From positions 1-64,000 of IMG/VR virus record IMGVR_UViG_3300042445_001170: a stretch of DNA of 64,000 nt. The stretch is one strand, 5' to 3'. The notes beneath the pieces are model-generated. The model was not told where the DNA came from. It saw only the letters and a program-made list of their open reading frames with translations, and did no database searches. Positions within the stretch are counted from its first letter, which is position 1, and every line of letters starts with the position of its first letter. The position numbers and the translations under genes were made by a program. The stretch is from a virus. Below, in pieces: positions 16,922 to 28,512 of this stretch.

Positions 16922-17214
16922 TTAGATCCCCCTATTAATAATTAATAATTAATTATATCACGAATAGATTCTGGTCGACTGCTATTTCAGATTTCATAAA
17001 ATGTTAATATATTTTTATTTTGTACGATACACACCTAAAAAGAAATCGGACATTTAGGATAGACCGCACATAATGAGCGTGTGCCTATGGGCAATGTGAT
17101 GCACTTCACAAAGTATTTTTTCAATTTGTCCCTAATGTCCGAATTTGGATTTGATAAATGTCAGACCCCCATGCTACGCTTATACTATAACAAACAAACG
17201 AAAGGAGTCAGACA

Positions 17215-17391
17215 ATGACTCAACTAAACGAAACACTATTCAGCACTATCGTGCATGACTTCCATAATGGCGGAGTCAAGTCCTCTTATGGACTATCTGC
17301 CTATGACCGCAAGGCTATGGTCAAGTACCTAATCTCTAGCCCTGCTTGCTACTGTATCGAGTGCGTGTGTGAGGTAACTCACACCGCATAA
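17215..17391 (+). CDS. Small hypothetical protein (58 aa)
   Basis: AACGAAAGGAG leader then ATG. Confidence 0.7.
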   Translation: MTQLNETLFSTIVHDFHNGGVKSSYGLSAYDRKAMVKYLISSPACYCIECVCEVTHTA

Positions 17392-17468
17392 GGTGCGTGT
17401 CGCCTTGATAATGTCAGACCTATACCCTATAATTCCATTATAACCAACTAACGAAAGAAGAACAGACA

Positions 17469-17621
17469 ATGACAATCACATACTCACTATGGGACGGCGC
17501 TCAACTACTAGGCGTGGACTTCACCGCTAATAGCGCAGACGAAATGAATAAGGCAGTAGCAGAACTACAAAAGGTTTCTAAGAATGTAGTAGCACACATG
17601 AGAAAGGTAACACAGAACTAA
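17469..17621 (+). CDS. Small hypothetical protein (50 aa)
   Basis: Follows promoter 17412 and the leader; TAATG coupling. Confidence 0.7.
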   Translation: MTITYSLWDGAQLLGVDFTANSADEMNKAVAELQKVSKNVVAHMRKVTQN

Positions 17622-17803
17622 TGTCATACGCATACTCATACCAAACTAATAGCGTGTCTAAGTGGGACACCATTCAGAGCGATGTCGCAGACGCATACGC
17701 CTACCTTGATGAAGAAGAAACAGAGCAACCCCCTGCTGATGATTTCGATGATGTAGACGATGAAGAATTAGCAAAAGTATTCGCACTAAGTTGGGATAAC
17801 TAA
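17621..17803 (+). CDS. Acidic hypothetical protein
   Basis: ORF track; coupled to the previous gene. Confidence 0.7.
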   Translation: MSYAYSYQTNSVSKWDTIQSDVADAYAYLDEEETEQPPADDFDDVDDEELAKVFALSWDN

Positions 17804-17805
17804 TA

Positions 17806-17943
17806 ATGGAACTACTACTAAATGACTACGGGCTAGAACTAGATACCTACATGGGCTCTCTATACCTACCTTGGCATACTATCGCTTTATCTACCGCCCT
17901 ACTAATCGCCTATAAGATTTATAAGAGAAAGAAGAGTAAGTAA
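17806..17943 (+). CDS. Small membrane protein (45 aa)
   Basis: MELLLNDY...; TM segment plus basic tail. Confidence 0.6.
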   Translation: MELLLNDYGLELDTYMGSLYLPWHTIALSTALLIAYKIYKRKKSK

Positions 17944-18053
17944 TGACTACTAATCGCATACTAACTACGCTAGTCCAACTAGGTATCGGTATCCCCGCCC
18001 TACTTATGCTCCGTCTAGTAATTCGTGATCTAATTCATAATAAATTAGACTAG
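17943..18053 (+). CDS. Small membrane peptide (36 aa)
   Basis: TAATG coupling; hydrophobic. Confidence 0.55.
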   Translation: MTTNRILTTLVQLGIGIPALLMLRLVIRDLIHNKLD

Positions 18054-18256
18054 CGCTACGGCGTGTCGGCTTGACAATGTCAAGCTGGCCCGCAAAGGCA
18101 CGGGGTCGGGCGTGTCGTTACGGATACGCTAAAAAACCCCTTGAATTTTGTGAGGTTTATCACAAAAAAGATTTATCAAAACACGGCGTGTCGTGTGGTA
18201 AATGTCAGTCCCCTCTGCTATAATTCCTACTATAACAACAACGAAAGGTCGTTAAA

Positions 18257-18385
18257 ATGACACTTGAAGAATACAAGGCGCACGTTGAGGCGCAACGCAA
18301 GGCAAGCCTTCTAAAGGCTATCGCAACAATGTCAGAGGCTAATGCTACAATGTCCTCTCTATTCAATACTAAGGAGGCTAACTAA
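18257..18385 (+). CDS. Small hypothetical protein (42 aa)
   Basis: AACGAAAGG leader; coupled. Confidence 0.65.
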   Translation: MTLEEYKAHVEAQRKASLLKAIATMSEANATMSSLFNTKEAN

Positions 18386-18507
18386 TGGGTTATGTAGAAA
18401 TCTTTCGCCTAGATGATGAGGGCGCTGGCTGGGTTGATTTATCAGAAGCAACACCAGATGAATTGTTTAACATTGAATTAGGATTACTAAATGAGGGGGC
18501 TCTCTAA
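18385..18507 (+). CDS. Small acidic protein (40 aa)
   Basis: AAGGAGG RBS; TAATG coupling. Confidence 0.65.
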   Translation: MGYVEIFRLDDEGAGWVDLSEATPDELFNIELGLLNEGAL

Positions 18508-18704
18508 TGGAGAAAACACAATTTGAAAAAGATTTAGAAATCAAGGAAAGTTTTATTGATTTACTTAATGACATTTATCCAGAGGTAAAAATTGGATACT
18601 CTACTTTTACACCCGCCGAAATTCTAGAGTGTTGCGACCCTGTTGCTTTTGCAATCGGATTAGTTGAGCACGAGGATTACCTAGCAGAAATGGAAAACGA
18701 ATAA
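18507..18704 (+). CDS. Hypothetical protein
   Basis: ORF track; coupled. Confidence 0.7.
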   Translation: MEKTQFEKDLEIKESFIDLLNDIYPEVKIGYSTFTPAEILECCDPVAFAIGLVEHEDYLAEMENE

Positions 18705-18805
18705 TGGATAAAGATATTTTTGGATTTGCCGAGGCAATTAGAATTGACGATCTTAGCGATGAAGATTTTAAAATTGTCGAATTAATTTTTAAAGATTTTA
18801 AGTAG
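18704..18805 (+). CDS. Small hypothetical protein (33 aa)
   Basis: TAATG coupling. Confidence 0.55.
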   Translation: MDKDIFGFAEAIRIDDLSDEDFKIVELIFKDFK

Positions 18806-19058
18806 CTAGCGGCGTGTCGACTTGACAAAGTTGATGCGCCCCCATAAGCACGGGGTCGGGCGTGTCGTTACGACATTGTTATAAAATCCCGTGAAATTTG
18901 CGGCGTGTCGATTTGACAGACAAATCGGACATTTCGATGTGATTAGTATCACACGGCTTGAGCGTCTCAGTATTTGGAATTACTGGCTAGTAATGTGAAA
19001 ATGTCAGTAGGCTCGTGTATAATTCCATACATAACAACAAACGAAAGAAGGTCTGCCA

Positions 19059-19265
19059 ATGGCTACCAAACTCTATACAATCGAAAGCCTACTTGTAGGA
19101 AAAAACTATCGCTCAAACTCTCGCCACTTTTCAGGCGAAATTGTTTCTGCTAAACCTCGTCCAGCAATTTGGTATGGCGATAAAACCGAAGCCTTTTTAA
19201 TTGAGGTTCGTACAGGCGGTCTGAGAAATAAATTCGCAACAATCGCAGTGAAGGTTGGTGAATAA
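19059..19265 (+). CDS. Hypothetical protein
   Basis: Promoter 19002 plus leader. Confidence 0.7.
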   Translation: MATKLYTIESLLVGKNYRSNSRHFSGEIVSAKPRPAIWYGDKTEAFLIEVRTGGLRNKFATIAVKVGE

Positions 19266-19442
19266 ATGAAAAGTTTTTCATCTGATGTAATTGACCATAA
19301 TGAATTTTATCTAATTCACGATTTATTATTTTTCTGTTGTGATGAGCAACAATTCCGCCACTCTTGTAAAGCACACGGCGAAATGATGGGTTGCTACTAT
19401 TGCGAATTTGATTACTCAAAAGATTGCGAGTGTGAGGAATAA
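19266..19442 (+). CDS. Small Cys-rich protein (58 aa)
   Basis: CC, CKAH, CYYC, CEC; abuts its neighbours. Confidence 0.6.
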   Translation: MKSFSSDVIDHNEFYLIHDLLFFCCDEQQFRHSCKAHGEMMGCYYCEFDYSKDCECEE

Positions 19443-19579
19443 TGATAAACTCAGTAATGCGTATAGATTGTTCAGAGTGTAATTCTACTGGACTAATCTT
19501 TTTTGGCGATAACAATAATTTTGATGTCGAAACTTGCGATTGCGATTTTGGCAAAGAGCAAGATTTATTTTTTAACTAA
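19442..19579 (+). CDS. Small Zn-binding protein (45 aa)
   Basis: CSECNSTG...CDC. Confidence 0.6.
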   Translation: MINSVMRIDCSECNSTGLIFFGDNNNFDVETCDCDFGKEQDLFFN

Positions 19580-19594
19580 CGAAAGGGAAAACCT

Positions 19595-19801
19595 ATGTAC
19601 CAAATAACTGTTGCCTACGATAGCAAGCCTATCCATTTCAACAAGAACTATACAGACGCTCTTGAAGCGTTTACCGCATTTCTTTCATTTACTGATTGGG
19701 GATTTGCTAACGAATACTCAACTGTAAATCTAATGACCCCAACTGGGAAAATGTATACTAAATTATTTTATCGTGAAGGTCGAAAGGTTGTAACAAAATG
19801 A
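19595..19801 (+). CDS. Hypothetical protein
   Basis: AACGAAAGGG leader. Confidence 0.7.
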   Translation: MYQITVAYDSKPIHFNKNYTDALEAFTAFLSFTDWGFANEYSTVNLMTPTGKMYTKLFYREGRKVVTK

Positions 19802-19989
19802 TGACTCGTAAAGACTATGTCGCAACGGCAGAAATTCTAAAGTATGCCAGCAACAAAACTCACCCCGCTGTATTTTCTAAAATTGTAAATGATTTTGCTG
19901 AAATGTTTGCGGTTGATAATCCGAGATTTGATGTAAAACGATTTCATGAGGCGAGTGGATACAATGTTCCTAACTTCAGTTCAAGATAA
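19798..19989 (+). CDS. Hypothetical protein (DNPRFD..RF motif)
   Basis: ORF track; coupled. Confidence 0.7.
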   Translation: MMTRKDYVATAEILKYASNKTHPAVFSKIVNDFAEMFAVDNPRFDVKRFHEASGYNVPNFSSR

Positions 19990-20095
19990 AGTAAAGCGAA
20001 TTCAGGAATTGCGTCGCAGTAATGCGGCGCAACCTGTTCGCAATAAGAAAAAATATAATCGCAAGATCAAACATAAGAATAAATATTCAGAGTAG
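19964..20095 (+). CDS. Small very basic protein (43 aa)
   Basis: ...LRRSNAAQPVRNKKKYNRKIKHK. Confidence 0.55.
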   Translation: MFLTSVQDKVKRIQELRRSNAAQPVRNKKKYNRKIKHKNKYSE

Positions 20096-20244
20096 CGCAT
20101 AACTATGCAGCTGCCCTCTCTTTTGTGGGGGGTCCAGTGTGAATTACGTCACATTTTAAAAATACCCTGAAAATTCGGCGTGTCGATTTTGATCTGTCAG
20201 TCCATTCTGCTATACTTGCCACTTAACCAACGAAAGGCTAACTA

Positions 20245-20454
20245 ATGGATAATTTTACTGTTGCTTGCTTGAACTATGAAATTTGTGGCGCTCAAGAAAC
20301 TTTTGATAACGATGCAGAATATGAAATTTATGGCGATGACTATATTTGTGCTGAATGCTATGCATCTGAGGAAATGGAATTCTTTGAAACTATAGGCTGG
20401 TCTGATAGCGATGCTCTTGCTTCCGCTGGCCACGGTATGGATGAGGATTACTAA
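20245..20454 (+). CDS. Acidic Cys-containing hypothetical protein
   Basis: Promoter 20195 plus leader. Confidence 0.7.
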   Translation: MDNFTVACLNYEICGAQETFDNDAEYEIYGDDYICAECYASEEMEFFETIGWSDSDALASAGHGMDEDY

Positions 20455-20485
20455 GATGTCAGTGGTCCCCGTTATAATTACCCCT

Positions 20486-21205
20486 ATGAAACTGAAACGT
20501 TCTAATGATAGAAAGGTGGCCAACCTTGTCACAAAAAATGGAAAGCAAGCCGCAATTGCCAATACTTTCGGATTACCTGCTGGAAAAGCTTACTCGTGCC
20601 CTGGTGCCACTAGTATTTGTGAAAGCGTTTGCTATGCAGGAAAACTCGAAAAGTTATTCCCTGGAGTAAAAACTAATCTGCTTCATAACTGGGCCCTGCT
20701 TAAAGACGCCGATAGCGAAACTATGGTCTCTCTTCTAAATGAAATGATTGTAGAATTCAAGGCAGATTGTGTTAAGAAAGACGCTCCTCAATTATTCCGT
20801 ATCCACTGGGACGGGGATTTCTTTAGCGATACTTATGCATATGCCTGGAAGACTGTTATCAACACACACGCTGATATTCAATTTTGGGTCTACACACGTG
20901 TAAAGTCTGCAGCGCTTATTCTTAAGGATATATCTAATCTGTCACTGTATTATTCTACGGATGATGATAATAAAGATATTGCTCATGATTTAAAACTAAC
21001 TAATGGCATTCGTCTTGCCTACCTAGGTAAAACATTTGCTGCAACCGAAGACACAATGAAGGAGTTAACTGGCAAGCCTGGTGCTAAGTGTCCTGAGAAT
21101 AATAAAAGCATTCCTCTTATCTCTAGCAATGGGTCCGCCTGCGTATCGTGTGGATTGTGCGTATACGGTAAAGCGGATATTAGATTTTCTGCGAGTAAAA
21201 AATAA
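20486..21205 (+). CDS. Gp88-like Fe-S/radical-SAM-like phage protein
   Basis: CPGATSICESVCYA, FRIHWDGDF, FWVYTR; leaderless ATG 7 nt after the -10 at 20473. Confidence 0.7.
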   Translation: MKLKRSNDRKVANLVTKNGKQAAIANTFGLPAGKAYSCPGATSICESVCYAGKLEKLFPGVKTNLLHNWALLKDADSETMVSLLNEMIVEFKADCVKKDAPQLFRIHWDGDFFSDTYAYAWKTVINTHADIQFWVYTRVKSAALILKDISNLSLYYSTDDDNKDIAHDLKLTNGIRLAYLGKTFAATEDTMKELTGKPGAKCPENNKSIPLISSNGSACVSCGLCVYGKADIRFSASKK

Positions 21206-21354
21206 TGATAGACATTCTCGGATCCTTGATCGGAATCATATTAATTTGTTTTTTGTGCTCACCAATTGTGTTGGCCGTGTACATGTGGAATGGGGCCAAG
21301 ATAGATAGCGATGGTGACGGGAAAGAAGATTTGCCTAATCGTTGGGATAGGTAA
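21205..21354 (+). CDS. Small membrane protein (49 aa)
   Basis: TAATG coupling; TM segment then DSDGDGKED. Confidence 0.5.
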   Translation: MIDILGSLIGIILICFLCSPIVLAVYMWNGAKIDSDGDGKEDLPNRWDR

Positions 21355-21404
21355 CGGCGTGTCGAGTTGACAATTGTCAGCTCGGCCCCCAATATTGTGG
21401 GGGT

Positions 21405-21434
21405 TTTTCCACAGGCTTACGAGAGTTATCCACA
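21405..21434 (+). promoter_or_regulatory. DnaA-box pair
   Basis: TTTTCCACA at 21405, TTATCCACA at 21426. Confidence 0.6.
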
Positions 21435-21547
21435 GACCCTGAAAATTTGTGATTAATCTCACAAAAGCTGCGACACGCCGAGAATGGATTAGGTAATGTC
21501 AGTGGCCTATGCTAAAATACTCTTATACCAACAACGAAAGGTAAGTT

Positions 21548-21772
21548 ATGTCTAATCTAATGAAAGTTCCACACACAGTTGAGTTCGAGGCAGTTATTGA
21601 CTTGGATAAAATTCCTTCACACTTGCTTCCTGCGCTAGTTTCTATGGATGCTGATTCTATTGAAAAAATGTGCAAAGGCGCAACACTACACGCACTTGGA
21701 ATGTCAAATGTAATTCCACTTGCTAATGAAAATAACACTTGGGCTGAAGTAACAATTAAGGGGAATAACTAA
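21548..21772 (+). CDS. Hypothetical protein
   Basis: Promoter 21497 plus leader. Confidence 0.7.
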   Translation: MSNLMKVPHTVEFEAVIDLDKIPSHLLPALVSMDADSIEKMCKGATLHALGMSNVIPLANENNTWAEVTIKGNN

Positions 21773-22038
21773 TGGGATACACAACAGCAGTAAGTCTATC
21801 TGAAGAATTAGATTTAGAAGTAGCACTAGGCTATCACTTACAAGGCAATCATTACCCGCCCGTTCCCCTCTCAATGGTCGAGCCTTGCATCGAGGCTATT
21901 GACGCTTATTGGGAAGAAGATTTTGATCGAGCAATCGAAATGCCTGAAGGCGTATCTTATAAAGGTCAAACTCACGCACCTGCTTGGGCTATTGTCGAGC
22001 AGCACCACTTGGACGCTTGGCTACCTGAAAGTGACTAA
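21772..22038 (+). CDS. Hypothetical protein
   Basis: ORF track; coupled. Confidence 0.7.
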   Translation: MGYTTAVSLSEELDLEVALGYHLQGNHYPPVPLSMVEPCIEAIDAYWEEDFDRAIEMPEGVSYKGQTHAPAWAIVEQHHLDAWLPESD

Positions 22039-22134
22039 GGTCACACAATAACTTTCTCAAATACTGAGATAGGGCTAGACTAATGTCAGACCCCAATGCT
22101 ATACTACCAACCTAACAAAGAAAAGAGGCAATAA

Positions 22135-22317
22135 ATGACAATAGATAATCAACTCTATCAGGTCGGAGATTTATTCACCACCCTGAAGTCAAAGAAAACT
22201 GGTGTGATTAAGGAAATCCACCCACAGGCATCTGGCTCGGTGCGTGTGCTACTAGAAATGCCAACGAAGGAAACTCGTTGGACTTCGGTATCCGCTAAGA
22301 CACTACTAGGCGCATAA
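22135..22317 (+). CDS. Small SH3/KOW-like hypothetical protein
   Basis: YQVGDL...GVIKEI beta pattern; promoter 22084. Confidence 0.65.
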   Translation: MTIDNQLYQVGDLFTTLKSKKTGVIKEIHPQASGSVRVLLEMPTKETRWTSVSAKTLLGA

Positions 22318-22452
22318 CCTAAATCGAAACAGGGACAGTTTAGGAAAGTATCTAGTCCAATGTCGTAAGTAAGAACTTTCCTCCCTTCGGGGAAATGTCA
22401 GACCCCCCTGCTATACTATCCATAACAACAACCAACCAACGAAAGGCACACA

Positions 22453-22869
22453 ATGTCAAGAGCAATCACAGTAAAGGTGGCAACACCAAAGGTAATTAAG
22501 GCACTAGAAACTCGTCTAGCAACACTAGAAAAAGACTATGCTTCACAAGAAGCAAACGAAGCAAAGTTCCAAAAGAAGCACGAAGCGTGGAAAAAGGAAA
22601 TTGGTAAGTGGGCTATCGCTAACTTCTCAAAGTCCGAGAACCTTCGCACAAACTATCGTTCTTGGAACAAAACGCTAAATGTTGATTTTGACATCATTGT
22701 AAGTGAGAAGGAGTTTCCGCTAGAGCCTGAGAAGGACTACGAAACAATCCATCAGCACACTTATCGTGAGATGAAAGAGGACATCACAAATGCCCTAACA
22801 ATTCTCAAGATGACAGATGAGGAAACAGTAAATGCTTCTACAATGAAGCAGATTGCTAAGTATCTCTAA
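22453..22869 (+). CDS. Coiled-coil hypothetical protein
   Basis: Promoter 22396 plus leader. Confidence 0.75.
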   Translation: MSRAITVKVATPKVIKALETRLATLEKDYASQEANEAKFQKKHEAWKKEIGKWAIANFSKSENLRTNYRSWNKTLNVDFDIIVSEKEFPLEPEKDYETIHQHTYREMKEDITNALTILKMTDEETVNASTMKQIAKYL

Positions 22870-22933
22870 ATAATTTGGGGGGCAGAACTAAAGTCCTGAA
22901 CCCAATCGTTCTCGCATAACGCTAAATTGCGAA

Positions 22934-22960
22934 CGACCTGAGTAAGTCGCCAAACTGCTC
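22934..22960 (+). ncRNA. Small H-type pseudoknot element, copy 1
   Basis: CGAC-CTGAGTAA-GTCG-CCAAAC-TGCTC. Confidence 0.55.
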
Positions 22961-22992
22961 TCCTTCGGGAAACTACTAACAAAGGTAATACA

Positions 22993-23253
22993 ATGGCAAA
23001 TCGTTTCAGAGTAGAAATCTACGATGCAAACAAACTTAATGACATCACGATTTATTCGGATCAAGGTGTTGATAAAGAATACTTAACTGAATTAGTATTC
23101 AGCAACATCAGAAACTTTAGCGGAAAAATTAACGCTTATGTTTTTGATAACGTGAAGAAAAAGAAAACAACTGCAATGTTTCTTGATGAGAGCACAGTTG
23201 AATTTAATAAGAACTTAATTAAAAATGCGACAAAGGTAGAGGTGGGGATTTAA
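22993..23253 (+). CDS. Hypothetical protein
   Basis: ORF track; AAAGG RBS. Confidence 0.7.
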   Translation: MANRFRVEIYDANKLNDITIYSDQGVDKEYLTELVFSNIRNFSGKINAYVFDNVKKKKTTAMFLDESTVEFNKNLIKNATKVEVGI

Positions 23254-23282
23254 TCCCCAGCTCGGCCCCCGCTTTTGAGGGG

Positions 23283-23314
23283 TTATCCACAGCGTTACGA
23301 CAACCTGTGGAAAA
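23283..23314. promoter_or_regulatory. Inverted DnaA-box pair
   Basis: TTATCCACA at 23283, TGTGGAAAA at 23306. Confidence 0.6.
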
Positions 23315-23431
23315 CCCTGAAAATTTGTGAGAATGATCACACCGCACAATTCGGACAAATGACTATCTAATCTAGACAATGTCAGTGCCACCTGTTATAC
23401 TTACAACTAATCAAACGAAAGGTAAAAAATA

Positions 23432-24436
23432 ATGGCTCATAATCTAGAAATGGAAAACGGCGAAGTTGCTTTCGCTCTCCGTGGCGCACCTGCTTGGCAC
23501 AATCTAGCAAATCGCATCTTCACACAAGATGAAGAAGTAACTACACAATCTATGCTTGAAGAAGCAAAGTTGGCTAATTGGAATGTTCGTCTATCTCCAA
23601 TAACTGAGCACATTCCAGAATCTTGGAATGATGTTTCTACTGCATCTCTTGTCATTCGTGATAACCCATTCAATGGCGGAACTGATGTTCTTGCAACTGT
23701 CGGTAAGCGTTACAAGCCTGTGCAGAATGAAGAACTATTTGCATTCGCTGATGCAATTCACGATGCCAATGCTGATTGCCGTTGGGAATCTGCTGGCTCA
23801 CTCAAAAAGGGCAAAGTTGTTTTCGGTACTGTGGACATTCCTCGCACAATGGTGCTTGACCCACAAGGCGCTAACGATGAAACTAAACTCTATCTAATTG
23901 TTTGGACATCTCATGACGGGTCTGTTGCCGTTCAGGCAGCCGTTACACCTGTTCGTGTTGTTTGCCAAAACACACTTAACCTTGCAATGAAGAATGCTAA
24001 GCAATCTTTCAAGATTCGCCATACGCAATCTGTTGAAGGTCGCATTCAGGTTGCTCGTGAAACTCTTGGGCTTGCTCTTGGTTATTTCGATGAGTTTGAA
24101 GTTGAAGCAAAGGCGCTTTACTCTCAGGCAATTACTGATGCTGAATTCTCTAAGTTGATTCAGACAATTTATCCTAAGCCTGAAAAAGATGCTAAGGGTG
24201 CAATCAAGAAGTGGGAAAACAAAGTTGTCCTGCTTGACGATTTGTATCACAACTCACCAACTAATGCTAACATCAAGGGAACAAAGTGGGGCGCATTCAA
24301 TGCACTTACTGAGCGCCTTGATTACTATCGTTCAGGTCGTGGCAATGGTGAAACTCTTATGGCGGGTGCATCAGGATTTGACCCTGTTCTAACTGCTGAG
24401 AAAAACAAAATCAAGAAATTGGTTTCTGCTTTCTAA
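23432..24436 (+). CDS. DUF932 family (phage/plasmid TIGR03299-like) protein
   Basis: MAHNL...AWH, YKPVQN, SHDGS...TPVRVVCQNTL, IRHT, GTKWGAFNALTE. Confidence 0.88.
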   Translation: MAHNLEMENGEVAFALRGAPAWHNLANRIFTQDEEVTTQSMLEEAKLANWNVRLSPITEHIPESWNDVSTASLVIRDNPFNGGTDVLATVGKRYKPVQNEELFAFADAIHDANADCRWESAGSLKKGKVVFGTVDIPRTMVLDPQGANDETKLYLIVWTSHDGSVAVQAAVTPVRVVCQNTLNLAMKNAKQSFKIRHTQSVEGRIQVARETLGLALGYFDEFEVEAKALYSQAITDAEFSKLIQTIYPKPEKDAKGAIKKWENKVVLLDDLYHNSPTNANIKGTKWGAFNALTERLDYYRSGRGNGETLMAGASGFDPVLTAEKNKIKKLVSAF

Positions 24437-24442
24437 TTAAAA

Positions 24443-24470
24443 AAATCCTGAGCATGATTTAAAACTGCTC
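24443..24470 (+). ncRNA. Small H-type pseudoknot element, copy 2
   Basis: AAATC-CTGAGCAT-GATTT-AAAAC-TGCTC. Confidence 0.55.
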
Positions 24471-24482
24471 ACATTTTTTATT

Positions 24483-24556
24483 GGTCTGTTAGCTCAGTTG
24501 GTTAGAGCGCTACCCTGTCACGGTAGAGGTCGACGGTTCAAGTCCGTTACAGATCG
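24483..24556 (+). tRNA. tRNA-Asp(GUC)
   Basis: Cloverleaf; anticodon arm CTACC-CTGTCAC-GGTAG. Confidence 0.95.
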
Positions 24557-24681
24557 CAAAATGCCCCCAATAGTAAGGGAGCAAAAAGTGTGTTACGAGT
24601 CACAAAACAATTCCCTGGAATCTATTGTATATGTCAGTGGGTTCGTGTACAATACTCCTATAACCTAACGAAAGAGGTAAA

Positions 24682-25110
24682 ATGTCACGAGAACGCAGAA
24701 CGGGATACACAGGCAATGTATTAGATGGCGAGAAGCTTGCCAAAATTGCTAATGACATCTACAACATTCAGTATACTGGTGGTGCAAGTAATTGCACGGT
24801 AGACAACCTATTACTAATTGAACTAGAAGAAAAAAATGTATTTGGGGATCCAAAGTATGCAGTAATATGCTCAGAAGGTGTTGGCTGGGAACAAGATGAA
24901 TATGGTTGCCTAGAAATACCTACAAACATTGGCGCTATGGGTCTATGGAATGGAAGAGTCTTTATCTCAGTAGAGACTGTTAAGTCTTGTCAGACTATAT
25001 TTACCAAGGAAGTATCAGAATACATTAGAACCTTTGGGTCCCGCCTGGATTCAAATTGCTCCCTATGGCAGTCCAAAATGTCAGTGGCACCTGCTACAAT
25101 ACTCGCATGA
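24682..25110 (+). CDS. Hypothetical protein
   Basis: Promoter 24632 plus leader. Confidence 0.7.
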   Translation: MSRERRTGYTGNVLDGEKLAKIANDIYNIQYTGGASNCTVDNLLLIELEEKNVFGDPKYAVICSEGVGWEQDEYGCLEIPTNIGAMGLWNGRVFISVETVKSCQTIFTKEVSEYIRTFGSRLDSNCSLWQSKMSVAPATILA

Positions 25111-25763
25111 CCAACGAACTAGTATCAAGTAAATATACATTTGTCTGCGACCCAGATGAATGTGATTGTCTAATTGAATTAACATCATCTGACGGGTTTG
25201 GATTCCCATCAGGTGTGACAGAACTCACATGTCCATGTGGCCGTAAGACTACCTTATTGTCAGTGGAGCATGCTACAATTGCACCAACAACAACGAAAGA
25301 GGAACAAATGGAAACAACAACACCTGCAGTAACCGTCCCTGATACATACAACTCAAATTTATTGGTTACCTATAAAGTAATCCGTGGCTATTCAGATGCA
25401 GAATATGCAACTGATAAGGTTGCATCTATTGAGTGGGACTTACATAATGGACGTCAATCACAAAAGCGTGTAACCACTCTCCTATCTCAAATTGATGCCG
25501 TCAAAGATATCATTACTGAATCATATGCTGATTCAAGCGACCAAGAAACACTTCAAGCAATTGCTGAAGCGCTAGACATTTCTCTAACACGAGAAGTTGA
25601 GTGGTCTGCAACAATTGAAGTTAGCGGAACATTAACAATTGATTTACTTGAAAGCACAGTTGATGATGTCGAACAAGAAATCTACGACAATCTTTATGTT
25701 GACTCACAAAACGGTCAGATTGAAATCGTTGACACTGAAGTTACGAATGTGCGTGAAAACTAA
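25107..25763 (+). CDS. Hypothetical protein: Zn-ribbon N-terminus, internal second start at 25308
   Basis: Leaderless ATG after the -10 at 25095; internal promoter 25258 plus leader give an in-frame ATG at 25308. Confidence 0.7.
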   Translation: MTNELVSSKYTFVCDPDECDCLIELTSSDGFGFPSGVTELTCPCGRKTTLLSVEHATIAPTTTKEEQMETTTPAVTVPDTYNSNLLVTYKVIRGYSDAEYATDKVASIEWDLHNGRQSQKRVTTLLSQIDAVKDIITESYADSSDQETLQAIAEALDISLTREVEWSATIEVSGTLTIDLLESTVDDVEQEIYDNLYVDSQNGQIEIVDTEVTNVREN

Positions 25764-25975
25764 TGTACTTTGAACTTACCGCTCCCGATAGGTTGTCCAT
25801 GGAGATGGCCTATTGGGATGCACAAATCACAGGGCTTGACCCTGAAGCAATGTCACCGTTGACTTTCAACATCGGAACTGGTAGTATTGAGAAAGTAAGT
25901 CGTATTCGTGATAAGTATAACTTGACAGAGTCCTACTGGTCAGATAAAGAAGCGACAGGATACAAGGAGAGATAA
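25763..25975 (+). CDS. Hypothetical protein
   Basis: Coupled ORF. Confidence 0.7.
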   Translation: MYFELTAPDRLSMEMAYWDAQITGLDPEAMSPLTFNIGTGSIEKVSRIRDKYNLTESYWSDKEATGYKER

Positions 25976-26121
25976 TGTCAGATTATAAAGATGGTTTTAC
26001 AGACGGGTATAAGTTTGCTCGTGAAGAACTAATGGAAAAGTTAGCAGAGATTGATATTGCTGACATTGACTCTTGGATTCTTGACCGTCTTTCAGAGATG
26101 ATTGAAGGTAATCAACTGTGA
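25975..26121 (+). CDS. Small acidic protein (48 aa)
   Basis: AGGAG RBS; MSDYKDGF... Confidence 0.6.
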   Translation: MSDYKDGFTDGYKFAREELMEKLAEIDIADIDSWILDRLSEMIEGNQL

Positions 26122-26309
26122 TGGCTGAGTGGCTTAAGTGTGATCAATGTGCAGCACAAGCTATGTGGGAAGCAAAGAAAGACGCTATGTCTCTTTATTT
26201 CTGCGGACATCATAAGAATGCACAGGGCGAGTCTCTTGTGGACTGGGCCCATGAAATGGTACAATTACTCAACTACGAAAAAGAACACCAACTAGAAACG
26301 GCGGAATAA
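26118..26309 (+). CDS. Small Zn-binding protein (CDQC...FCGHH)
   Basis: Motif pattern seen in small actinobacterial and actinophage proteins. Confidence 0.7.
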   Translation: MMAEWLKCDQCAAQAMWEAKKDAMSLYFCGHHKNAQGESLVDWAHEMVQLLNYEKEHQLETAE

Positions 26310-26310
26310 A

Positions 26311-26679
26311 ATGGGCGACAGAGCAAACTTTGGATTTAAAGATTCCAAGGACAATATTGTATTTCTATATGGACACTGGGCGGGGCACCGAATGCTAGAG
26401 AACCTAGCGGATGCTGTAGGCGCTGCAGAGCCACGTTGGCAGGACGAATCATATGCAACACGTATTGCTATCTCACAATTAATTAAAGACGAATGGGCTA
26501 GCGAAACAGGGTGGGGCATTACAGTAAATGAATTAGCAGACAATGAGCACAAGGTCCCTATTATCGATTGGAAGAACCAAACGTTTACATTAATGGAAGA
26601 GGACCTGAAGACGGTTGTATTTAGTACAACACTGGATGCATTTGTAACTAAGTATTCCAGTCAACCAAGTATGGTATAA
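26311..26679 (+). CDS. Hypothetical protein (MGDRAN...LYGHWAG family)
   Basis: ORF track. Confidence 0.75.
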   Translation: MGDRANFGFKDSKDNIVFLYGHWAGHRMLENLADAVGAAEPRWQDESYATRIAISQLIKDEWASETGWGITVNELADNEHKVPIIDWKNQTFTLMEEDLKTVVFSTTLDAFVTKYSSQPSMV

Positions 26680-26684
26680 TTAAT

Positions 26685-26836
26685 CCAGGACCTATGGTCT
26701 TGGTTTTAATACAGAAATGAAATGGTGCGTCTAACTAGTCTACGGGCCAGGCGCTAAGTAAAGCGGTTTATTTCTTTCGTTGGAAATCTAGCAGCCATAT
26801 TCATAACCCCCCAGCTAATCCTGGGGGGTATTCTTT
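26685..26836 (+). ncRNA. Candidate sRNA with loop complementary to the island mRNA leaders
   Basis: TGGTATAAT at 26672-26680, 5' hairpin, long closing stem, loop TTTCGTTG, terminator. Confidence 0.65.
26806..26836 (+). terminator. Intrinsic terminator
   Basis: ACCCCCCAG-CTAATC-CTGGGGGGT followed by ATTCTTT. Confidence 0.8.
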
Positions 26837-26917
26837 TGCCCACAAAAGATATGAGGGTATCAGATCTCTTTTAAGAAGTCAATATAAAATACCCTGAAAA
26901 TTTGTGATCTTGACCAC

Positions 26918-26970
26918 AAACCTAACAATAGATTAATTAAACCTAACAAGCTTTCGATCAAACCTAACAA
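26918..26970 (+). repeat. AAACCTAACAA x3 with a 21-bp period
   Basis: Copies at 26918, 26939, 26960. Confidence 0.9.
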
Positions 26971-27053
26971 TGTGGTCCAATTCACACAGCATATGTATTC
27001 CATTTGTCAGTGGTCTAGTCTATAATTAGAACATATCAACGAAAGGATATAAA

Positions 27054-27797
27054 ATGCCAAACTGGGTATTCAACGGATTAACTATTGAGGGTAATCCTGA
27101 GCAAGTTAAGTCTTTAATTACACAGATGAATAAGCCATTTATTTATTCAATTACTCCTGTTGGAGATTTAGCATATGATGTCAAGCAGACTAAGTATGTT
27201 AATCCTATCTTTGCTTTTCATAATATCTATTCATATAGAGATGCTGGTATTACTGATGAACAGTATCATTCTCAACCGCCCCATAATCCTGATACAACAA
27301 TGAAGGATTGGTTTAAGTTTGAGACCAATGATTGGTACAACTTCAATGTCCGTGAGTGGGGCACTAAATGGGATGTAGCCGTATCTGAGGATGATAAGTA
27401 TCCTGATACTACTATTGAGGAAGCCGAAAATGGCGAGAACTATGTAGTCCACTATAACTTTAATACTGCTTGGTCTCGTCCAATGAATGCTTTAATTAAA
27501 CTATCATCTCAATACCCAACATTACTATTTACTTTATCATATGAGGAAGAAACAGGTTGGGGTGGGGAATGTGAGTTCCTTCGTGGAGAAGTTATCTCAG
27601 AATCAGAATATGACAACATGTGCCGTGATTGTGATGCAACAGACCAAATGGAATACTGCGAAAATGACTGTGGTGAAATCTGTGGCAACTGCAACTGGCT
27701 TGGTGAGGCTGACCTAGAGGCTGTAGCAAAATGTCAGACCCATGCTATATACTTGGAAACTAAAGTACCCGAATATCGAAAGGCGGAGGTAAAATGA
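27054..27797 (+). CDS. DUF1281/YubB ferredoxin-like family protein
   Basis: MPNWVFN, DWYNFNVREWGTKWD, FNTAWS motifs; Cys-rich tail. Confidence 0.75.
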   Translation: MPNWVFNGLTIEGNPEQVKSLITQMNKPFIYSITPVGDLAYDVKQTKYVNPIFAFHNIYSYRDAGITDEQYHSQPPHNPDTTMKDWFKFETNDWYNFNVREWGTKWDVAVSEDDKYPDTTIEEAENGENYVVHYNFNTAWSRPMNALIKLSSQYPTLLFTLSYEEETGWGGECEFLRGEVISESEYDNMCRDCDATDQMEYCENDCGEICGNCNWLGEADLEAVAKCQTHAIYLETKVPEYRKAEVK

Positions 27798-28024
27798 GTT
27801 TTCTAGAGAACGAAAACCAAATGGTAATAGATGCAACATATTCAGAGATTGGCGAAATGCTAGTTGAAGATTGGGTTAATTCTAATTTAGATGAAGGTCA
27901 GATGTATGCAGATTTTAGATTTGCAGAAATGTCAGATAGCAATTATCTAAAGGGCAGATTTAATCAGTTCTATGATTTAAATGAAGGCGACCAGTATTAC
28001 CTAGAATGGAATGAGGAACTATGA
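27794..28024 (+). CDS. Acidic hypothetical protein
   Basis: GGAGG RBS; ATGA overlap. Confidence 0.7.
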   Translation: MSFLENENQMVIDATYSEIGEMLVEDWVNSNLDEGQMYADFRFAEMSDSNYLKGRFNQFYDLNEGDQYYLEWNEEL

Positions 28025-28200
28025 TGTTAGGTTATTCTAAAACAGATCTAGATGAAATGATTAACTCGGTCCATGATGCTAAATTGTTTTACATTAGAAA
28101 TTCAGATGTTGAGCAAGTTGACCAAGACCCTTTAGTTGAAGGCTTATTAAAAACAAATGACTTTCTTCAAGGTCTATGGGCAGAAGGGTATTTTGACTAA
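28021..28200 (+). CDS. Hypothetical protein (59 aa)
   Basis: MMLGYS...LQGLWAEGYFD; coupled. Confidence 0.65.
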   Translation: MMLGYSKTDLDEMINSVHDAKLFYIRNSDVEQVDQDPLVEGLLKTNDFLQGLWAEGYFD

Positions 28201-28310
28201 TGCATAAACATCATTGGGAATGTGATGATGTACCAGGATACTTTTATTGTGCCTGCGGAGTAATGGCTATTCATAATAGAGAAACGGGAGAGAAGGATAT
28301 TCATGACTAA
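28200..28310 (+). CDS. Small His/Cys peptide (36 aa)
   Basis: MHKHHWEC...CACG; coupled. Confidence 0.5.
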   Translation: MHKHHWECDDVPGYFYCACGVMAIHNRETGEKDIHD

Positions 28311-28512
28311 ATCATCAGTGTTCCTAGAATACATGAAACTTCATTTGATCAGTCTTAACCAGGATTGGGAAGATGCTAAAAATGGAGCACCTTTGAAGGA
28401 TGATGAATATGACCCTTCAGATGATTACTTTGAAGGAGCAATTGCAGCAACAGAACATTTATTGTCAGTGGCAACTGATATAATGAACTCTACTAACGAA
28501 AGGTATGAATAA
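28303..28512 (+). CDS. Hypothetical protein
   Basis: ORF track. Confidence 0.7.
   Translation: MTKSSVFLEYMKLHLISLNQDWEDAKNGAPLKDDEYDPSDDYFEGAIAATEHLLSVATDIMNSTNERYE

Follow-up and report, generated by a model that had tools for sequence, protein, structure and literature searches.

Phage-encoded small RNAs (sRNAs) are few, and the known cases that act through an antisense loop, c4 of phages P1 and P7 and CI of P4, control one operon of a temperate element. In phage T4 the turning down of early mRNAs falls to proteins, with RegB cleaving GGAG and RegA binding initiation regions, and in the actinobacteria, a phylum without Hfq, the host-encoded and Hfq-independent 6C sRNA presents two C-rich loops. 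The c4 RNA is a structured phage RNA that blocks phage gene expression by antisense pairing near a ribosome-binding site (PMC12197685). Here we examine positions 26672-26836 of the phage record IMGVR_UViG_3300042445_001170, the first 64 kb of which are referred to hereafter as the window; the complete record, as rated in IMG/VR, measures 112,167 bp. Judged from its sequence and that of its relatives, the locus specifies a structured non-coding RNA of about 150 nucleotides (nt) that belongs to a previously uncatalogued family, and one of its loops is complementary to a tag in the leaders of a surrounding island of small genes. A preliminary description had proposed this interval as an sRNA whose loop is antisense to a shared early leader; the observation in the sequence is confirmed, the antisense interpretation is partly supported, and the mechanism is plausible. 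Our preferred reading, to which we assign a probability of roughly 0.55, is that of a trans-acting antisense RNA that would block the Shine-Dalgarno site of 12–14 of 17 early transcription units.

A conserved three-way-junction RNA

The family was recovered by way of the 122-residue protein encoded just upstream (open reading frame (ORF) 26311-26679). Through this neighbor 65 related loci were retrieved, and 64 of these have the loop segment CTTTCGTTGG, even where the protein is no more than 57% identical. Their alignment contains the invariant core runs GGTGC, CTA, TAAGTAAAGC and GCAGCC, and a pattern built from these runs extended the search to a divergent clade and to further lineages. A covariance model of the 94-position core, termed R1, has a single hit in the 112-kb genome, recovers the RNA from more than 60 related contigs of freshwater phages, and matches 52 distinct sequences. 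Among these, 92.6% of the cells of the alignment are paired, against 78.1% in shuffles, and the covariation score is 0.368, against 0.123 in shuffles, of which none of 500 reaches the observed value; both figures lean towards the structure, since the alignment was fitted to R1. The compensatory stems are visible in raw MAFFT alignments as well, and a control in which the partners were slid by 1–3 columns gave covariation scores of at most 0.124. The interval also folds more stably than shuffled sequences do (z = -3.45).

The structure is a three-way junction (Table 1). Its closing stem, P1, had been recognized earlier in nearly the same place; it is present and covaries, with the inner four base pairs being paired in 98% of cases (UA, AU, GU or GC at the variable pair) and the outer part taking the forms GAA/TTC, GAT/ATC and TAATGG/CCATTA. 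P2 joins 26727-26731 with 26750-26754 and is paired in 100% of the 52 RNAs, with GC, CG or AU and UG, CG or GU occurring at two of its pairs. Its internal loop is conserved, and the apical P2a, which is closed by the TACG loop, displays four pair types. The junction strand J2/3 is nearly invariant, and a third hairpin, P3, carries the loop that is discussed below. One further pairing of 10 bp, between 26711-26722 and 26765-26774, is found in the minimum-free-energy fold of the single sequence; it was rejected, not being kept in other clades.

At the borders of the RNA, the 5' hairpin and the strong terminator that had been pointed out in the preliminary description are both present and are kept as structures by compensatory change in relatives. 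The hairpin recurs in the variants CCAGGACC/GGTCTTGG, AGGACC/GGTCCT and AGGCCC/GGGCCT, and the terminator stem drifts freely in sequence, the hairpin and T-run being kept. The 5' hairpin could, in addition, weakly terminate the upstream operon. The earlier judgment that the interval holds no convincing ORF likewise stands, with no frame exceeding 11 codons and the longest one being broken by indels in relatives. Lying as it does between two terminator-like hairpins, the interval might be imagined to do no more than terminate the upstream operon, the RNA itself being functionless and its complement to the leaders accidental. This we consider very improbable in view of the strong base-pair covariation, the invariant junction nucleotides, the conservation of a single-copy element in phages whose neighboring protein is only 57–75% identical, and the mere 0.06 or so chance 10-mer matches expected per strand in 64 kb.

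Searches against Rfam gave no family match, neither for the window at the gathering score nor for 26600-27060 at E <= 10, where tRNAs and chance hits alone were returned, and ARAGORN and the Rfam models place none of the 13 tRNAs (and no tmRNA) at 26672-26836. A megablast search of 26000-28000 against GenBank phages was equally without match. A scan of 185,000 species genomes with the scaffold pattern found no host-encoded copy; it returned only three short phage contigs binned into metagenome-assembled genomes (MAGs), together with chance hits in coding DNA of Romboutsia and Pseudobacteriovorax. The three contigs (L270, L272 and L274) are 3 kb in length, carry the RNA along with TGTCAG promoters, and were assigned to MAGs with the labels Bacteroidia, Polynucleobacter and 'bacterium'; mis-binning of phage contigs is the likeliest cause, and they provide no host evidence. 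The genome of the phage in question, an uncultured one from lake water, has 13 tRNA genes and a G+C content of about 39%, and its large terminase is 62–63% identical to those of ~128-kb Streptomyces phages, so that its host, as far as such similarities indicate, is likely actinobacterial. The DNA of the relatives originates from lake, river and estuary metagenomes, and those that carry the RNA family are freshwater, actinophage-like siphoviruses.

Complementarity of the P3 loop and the early leaders

The P3 stem joins 26765-69 with 26784-88 and encloses the segment ATTTCTTTCGTTGG at 26770-26783. Across the relatives this stem appears as GGTTT/AAATC, GGATTT/AAATCC, GGATCT/AGATCC, AGAGTTC/GAAC-CTCT, ATCGG/CCGAT and AGGT/ACCT, among other forms. 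An inner hairpin ATTTC/GAAAT (26770-87) had been described here previously. It can form, and it uses the same 3' strand as the conserved stem, but it is not the pairing kept in evolution; the relatives covary the outer stem GGTTT/AAATC, and therefore the whole of the 14-nt ATTTCTTTCGTTGG is taken as loop. The loop could shrink to the hexaloop UUCGUU if CU/GG or ACU/GGU were to form a short closure inside it. The loop is indeed conserved in relatives: its core CTTTCGTT is kept in 46 of 47 distinct loop-bearing RNAs while the P3 stem varies widely, the exception being L122, which has CTTTCGAT.

The complement of this loop is found in an island of small genes on the plus strand, between 17.1 and 28.5 kb. 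The island has 17 plus-strand promoters of the form TGTCAG-N10-TAnnnT (17159-28484 of the window), many of them with TGn before the -10. Genome-wide there are 19 plus-strand matches to TGTCAG-N9-11-TAnnnT, 17 of which fall within 17.1-28.5 kb, with the remaining 2 lying elsewhere in the 112 kb. The tag AACGAAAG occurs 13 times in plus sense in the window, always between 17197 and 28495 and each time 7-13 nt upstream of an ATG, and its sole minus-sense copy (26774-26781) is that within CTTTCGTTGG in the loop (26774-26783). These 14 copies compare with 1.7 expected, and 0 of 100 shuffles reach 14. In the entire 112-kb genome the plus-strand copies remain 13, all within 17.2-28.5 kb, and the minus strand has only two, the loop and one at 99904. 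The leaders at 20227 and 22436 match the loop over its full 10 nt, which bears out the reverse complementarity on which the preliminary description was founded.

The tag includes GAAAGG, which we take to match the 3' end of actinobacterial 16S rRNA (CCUCCUUUCU); pairing of the loop would therefore cover the Shine-Dalgarno element. The conserved loop motif CUUUCGUU, as a predicted exposed seed, would thus face complementary translation-initiation regions at 13 start codons. Counts of the reverse complements of all 7- and 8-mers of the RNA across the genome carried no information, given how frequent A+T-rich words are. A duplex scan of both genome strands with the 14-nt loop placed its nine best non-self sites all in the early island, with energies of -14.4 to -17.3 kcal/mol, against a mean of -3.8 and a standard deviation of 2.1; eight of the nine are AACGAAAG tags. 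A ranking of targets had been put forward as a check on the proposal, and in the present scan the island leaders are the best predicted duplexes genome-wide.

The claim that the whole early regulon is addressed proves too broad. Twelve of the 17 island promoters are followed by the full tag (ACGAAAG), two by a partial one (CGAAAG in one case, an apparently leaderless gene in the other), and three by none, having unrelated Shine-Dalgarno sequences. Conversely, 12 of the 13 tagged genes stand behind TGTCAG-N10-TAnnnT promoters, and the tag at 19578 is without one. In the leaderless gene, with its promoter at 25079, the ATG lies 7 nt after the -10 and codons 2-4 read ACC AAC GAA; the CCAACGAA within them is an 8-nt match to the RNA loop that is kept in some relatives only.

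According to the antisense reading, the 14-nt P3 loop would present CUUUCGUU(GG) and pair in trans with the (CC)AACGAAAG(G) that 12-14 of the 17 island units carry in their short 5' leaders. Such pairing over GAAAGG would deny the 30S subunit access to each unit's first cistron, and repression would spread along the unit, because stop and start codons of many downstream cistrons overlap. The expected outcome would be a collective shut-down or dampening of the early island. Here we infer transcription from the proposed promoter, pairing in vivo, repression as the direction of the effect, and its timing. The same pairing evidence would also suit an effect of the opposite kind, in which the duplex activates the leaders or protects them, for instance against RNase J or RNase E, or a situation in which the real targets are host mRNAs with the same Shine-Dalgarno context, as neither the direction of the effect nor the full set of targets can be read from sequence. 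We regard these possibilities as quite improbable: the duplex covers the predicted Shine-Dalgarno GAAAG(G), 7-13 nt from the start codon, which speaks against activation, and in known cases a duplex over this element blocks initiation.

The promoters of the presumed targets and that of the RNA differ in sequence. The former resemble the PafBC-dependent (-26 element) promoters of mycobacteria, for which the consensus is tGTCgg(N10)tA(N3)T, which lacks a -35 and has its element at -23 to -28 (PMC8635444), and the geometry, as judged from the sequence, is the same. The likeness concerns the target-gene promoters and not that of the RNA itself, where an extended -10 is accompanied by AGTCAA, a 4/6 match. 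The preliminary description held that this -10 is without the TGTCAG element; the exact hexamer is indeed absent, but AGTCAA retains the GTC core at exactly N10 from TATAAT. Either AGTCAA or AGTCGA is kept in most relatives although the encoded C-terminus differs, and it might conceivably be a weak -26-type element. With an extended -10 and only a 4/6 AGTCAA where the targets have TGTCAG, the RNA promoter may be read differently from theirs. Within the main clade TGGTATAAT is invariant, and other clades have TGCTATAAT, TGATATAAT or TTGACG-17-TACAAT at the promoter position.

Loop variants, the scaffold and the mode of expression

A point missed by the preliminary description is that the scaffold also occurs without the antisense loop. 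Three sister lineages, with 14 RNAs, share the scaffold, homologous island genes and TGTCAG promoters, and have other P3 loops (Table 1). In the phages with the minimal P3 (L168, L204, L280 and L281) the leaders read AAAGAAAG, ACGGAAAG or AATGAAAG, not AACGAAAG. Taking the loop-variant lineages together, ACGAAAG leaders follow 0 of 36 TGTCAG promoters and GAAAG follows 19. Directly before GAAAG, 89% of 255 unique leaders from loop-bearing phages have a C, a base that pairs with the G of the loop and lies outside the Shine-Dalgarno element; at six loop-variant loci 0 of 10 leaders have it, A, G or T standing in its place. Counted over whole records, ACGAAAG is distributed 14:1 and 10:1 between the strands in two loop-bearing phages, the lone copy on the opposite strand being the loop, and it is at background level in three loop-variant phages. 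This co-occurrence of tag and loop appears to be the best available sign of joint selection, and shared ancestry could still explain it because there are only about three lineage contrasts.

Several observations weigh against the antisense reading. Loop and tag are both invariant within this lineage, and the covariation of loop and leader that had been proposed as a check is thus seen as co-occurrence across lineages (some three independent contrasts) and not as compensatory double changes. The loop flank (U, A or C before CUUUCGUU) covaries weakly with the leader positions after GAAAG (G at 0.86 versus 0.69-0.73, n = 22), and this trend was excluded from the evidence. The variant loops TTTCGAGG and ACACCCCCAG have no repeated complement in their own phage records, where counts are at control level, and a duplex scan with the variant loops gave no leader targets in their own phages. 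Folds of the single sequence pair much of the loop in alternative structures, where UUC (26776-26778) is the only part left mostly unpaired. Conservation of the scaffold equals or exceeds that of the loop, and the scaffold is retained where an antisense loop is absent altogether. In the divergent 'A-loop' clade many of the RNAs have neither 5' hairpin nor terminator and abut the upstream stop codon. Finally, two contigs from RNA libraries, of 415 nt and 552 nt, bridge the upstream ORF into or across the RNA, and show no separate small RNA.

Since the scaffold is kept in sister lineages without the antisense loop, antisense pairing cannot be its only or original function. The conservation implies, on comparative grounds, either that the scaffold has a further function beyond the loop or that the loop serves as a guide which can be exchanged on a shared platform. 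On the first alternative the junction (P1, the P2 internal loop and J2/3 UAANUAAA) would bind, as its main function, a protein or other partner such as an RNase, the ribosome, RNA polymerase or a phage protein. The P3 loop would then be peripheral and exchangeable, and its match to the leaders would either lack a function or be a lineage-specific addition by which the complex is tethered to early mRNAs. The junction and internal-loop nucleotides that are invariant in all lineages, the retention of scaffold and island context where P3 is minimal or the loop unrelated, and the lack of phage targets for the variant loops (in own-record counts and in the duplex scan) are all in its favor. It leaves unexplained the invariance of CUUUCGUU in 46 of 47 RNAs over a drifting stem, as well as the extra AAC before the Shine-Dalgarno element in ~89% of leaders, only where the loop exists; moreover, no neighboring gene is conserved alongside the RNA across all lineages. 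We hold it as a tentative alternative, compatible with the antisense reading rather than exclusive of it. The second alternative, a modular guide whose three-way junction perhaps docks an effector (an RNase or the ribosome) and whose exchangeable P3 loop is programmed for each lineage, here aimed at the phage's own early-leader tag and elsewhere at host transcripts, is somewhat more doubtful. If true, such a guide would be an RNA-based counterpart of T4 RegB in switching off early expression.

The mode of expression bears on a further alternative. Promoter-like and terminator elements are conserved with compensatory changes, as would be expected of a discrete unit, but part of the divergent clade is without both. 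In L154, L159, L176, L195, L200, L209, L242 and others the RNA starts at or within the upstream stop codon, and CTTGACAAAT comes after it. In such members of the 'A-loop' clade the RNA may be made as an element of the 3' untranslated region and not as a separate gene. In L180, L279 and L284 the RNA stands behind TGATATAAT and ends ~10 nt before the ORF MELNEYITKV..., in the manner of a 5' leader. Four metatranscriptome runs from three studies supplied contigs only, which give no ends, strand or level and may include DNA carry-over. RNA-library contigs from relatives of the island cover 26682-26795, and one extends from the RNA past the terminator towards 26996; the bins 26796-27023 are uncovered in three runs and were not interpreted. 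Such coverage neither supports nor counts against a discrete small RNA.

The order of promoter, structured RNA, terminator and genes would also fit a cis-acting element, be it a processive antiterminator (of the HK022 put or EAR type) or a riboswitch-like leader controlling read-through at 26806-26829. The leader-like placement in L180, L279 and L284, the L201 lineage, where only a T-run and the next promoter follow the RNA, and the contig that crosses the terminator agree with it. We nevertheless judge it unlikely: 170 nt beyond, a strongly conserved promoter and leader belong to the downstream gene itself, many family members are without a terminator, the terminator varies freely and offers the invariant core no alternative partner, Rfam returned neither a riboswitch nor an antiterminator family, and the match of loop and leaders is left unexplained. 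The varying terminator, the distance of ~170 nt and the independent promoter between the RNA and the next gene in the window also set the locus apart from a riboswitch.

Neighboring features and comparison with known systems

The gene upstream of that for the 122-residue protein encodes 63 residues (26118-26309) and belongs to DUF7455; the gene downstream of the RNA (27054-27797) encodes a DUF1281_C (Api92-like ferredoxin-like) domain. The other island proteins tested had no match in Pfam. Directly past the terminator, at 26838-26859, lies GCCCACAAAAGATATGAGGGTA, which occurs once in the window. All loop-bearing clades, those without terminator included, have some form of it after the RNA, and in the loop-variant lineages it is absent there. 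It may form part of the regulatory sequences of the Api92-like gene downstream. Between the RNA and the next promoter, TGTGATCTTGACCACA (26903-26918) forms a CRP-family-like palindrome (TGTGA-N6-CCACA) that is kept in most relatives. It is followed at 26919-26970 by three exact copies of AACCTAACAA with a 21-nt period, a fourth copy of which lies at 22109 (0.2 expected). Because the relatives differ in sequence at that spot, these repeats look like a strain-specific insertion of repeated sites.

Table 1. Coordinates of the RNA, its predicted leader targets and the loops of sister lineages (window positions unless a locus is named; duplex energies in kcal/mol)
Feature	Position	Strand	Remarks
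Leader tag AACGAAAG, promoter at 17159	17197..17204	+	duplex -12.7
Leader tag, promoter at 17412	17450..17457	+	duplex -15.1
Leader tag, promoter at 18203	18240..18247	+	duplex -13.0
Leader tag, promoter at 19002	19040..19047	+	duplex -12.3
Leader tag, no TGTCAG promoter directly upstream	19578..19585	+	duplex -14.9
Leader tag, 10-nt match CCAACGAAAG, promoter at 20195	20227..20236	+	duplex -15.3
Leader tag, promoter at 21497	21533..21540	+	duplex -13.0
Variant site CCAACGAAGG	22261..22270	+	duplex -17.3
Leader tag, full 10-nt match, promoter at 22396	22436..22445	+	duplex -15.3
Leader tag, promoter at 23380	23414..23421	+	duplex -9.9
Leader tag, promoter at 24632	24667..24674	+	duplex -16.2
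CCAACGAA in codons 2-4 of apparently leaderless gene	25111..25118	+	duplex -10.8
Leader tag, promoter at 25258; operon ends just before RNA	25292..25299	+	duplex -14.9
AGTCAA	26659..26664	+	GTC-containing 4/6 match to TGTCAG (-26) element, exactly 10 nt upstream of TATAAT
Extended -10 TGGTATAAT, putative RNA promoter	26672..26680	+	overlaps stop codon of 122-residue ORF
5' hairpin, 8 bp, loop TAT, then TTTT at 26704-26707	26685..26703	+	predicted 5' end of RNA
Three-way-junction core	26715..26805	+	R1 91.5 bits, E = 1e-19
P1 5' strand ATGAA-A-TGGT	26717..26726	+	pairs with 26794-26804; small internal loop
P2 GCGTC/GGCGC, internal loop CTA..A / CA, apical P2a GTC-TACG-GGC	26727..26754	+	covariation
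J2/3 junction TAAGTAAA (family consensus TAANTAAA)	26755..26762	+	nearly invariant
P3 hairpin: GC/GC base, stem GGTTT/AAATC, 14-nt loop	26763..26792	+	clade-specific stems stay complementary
CTTTCGTTGG, reverse complement of leader tag CCAACGAAAG	26774..26783	+	in P3 loop
P1 3' strand GCCA-TA-TTCAT	26794..26804	+	invariant AGCA before it
Intrinsic terminator	26806..26836	+	stem 26806-26829, 9 bp, 7 G-C pairs, 6-nt loop, T-run
Leader tag, promoter at 27005; Api92-like gene downstream of RNA	27038..27045	+	duplex -14.4
Leader tag, promoter at 28463	28495..28502	+	duplex -12.9
P3 loop CCUNGAAAW (CCUCGAAAA, CCUAGAAAU or CCUUGAAAU)	L201, L224, L236, L282-L287		sister lineage
P3 loop CUGGGGGUGUU	L180 (2739-2827), L279, L284		sister lineage
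Minimal P3 GCGC-ACA/TTAG-GCGC	L168:138-214, L204, L280, L281	- (L168)	sister lineage

The scaffold adds a new RNA family to freshwater actinophage genomes, and our literature searches found no phage sRNA aimed at a shared early leader. If the antisense reading is true, one RNA that recognizes a tag on a dozen early units would be a new way to time a phage program, and a single RNA loop would do what T4 does with the proteins RegA and RegB. The system would be a compact one, consisting of a tag of 8-10 nt plus a stable scaffold with a 14-nt loop, and working in Hfq-free actinobacterial hosts. The natural loop variants on the same scaffold allow direct testing, and the whole is potentially a reusable regulatory part.

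By mechanism, the nearest described systems are c4 of P1 and P7 and CI of P4, which are likewise small structured phage RNAs with a loop antisense to sequences at or near a ribosome-binding site. They differ in being immunity factors of temperate elements that are cut from the operon they control and act at one or two sites there. In the present case the proposed targets are 12-14 units that share one tag in an early island of virulent-type appearance, dispersed over 11 kb behind separate promoters, and the scaffold also occurs without the antisense loop; nor does the Rfam C4 model match, at the gathering score or at E <= 10. T4 RegB and RegA are alike in logic, as both address a short motif in or near the Shine-Dalgarno element that is common to many early mRNAs. 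They are proteins, whereas the recognizer proposed here would be an RNA loop and the motif an 8-10-nt tag. The actinobacterial 6C sRNA, finally, offers a similar pyrimidine-rich loop of anti-Shine-Dalgarno character on a stable stem-loop scaffold, directed at several mRNAs; it differs in its fold and in being host-encoded, and its Rfam model finds no match here.

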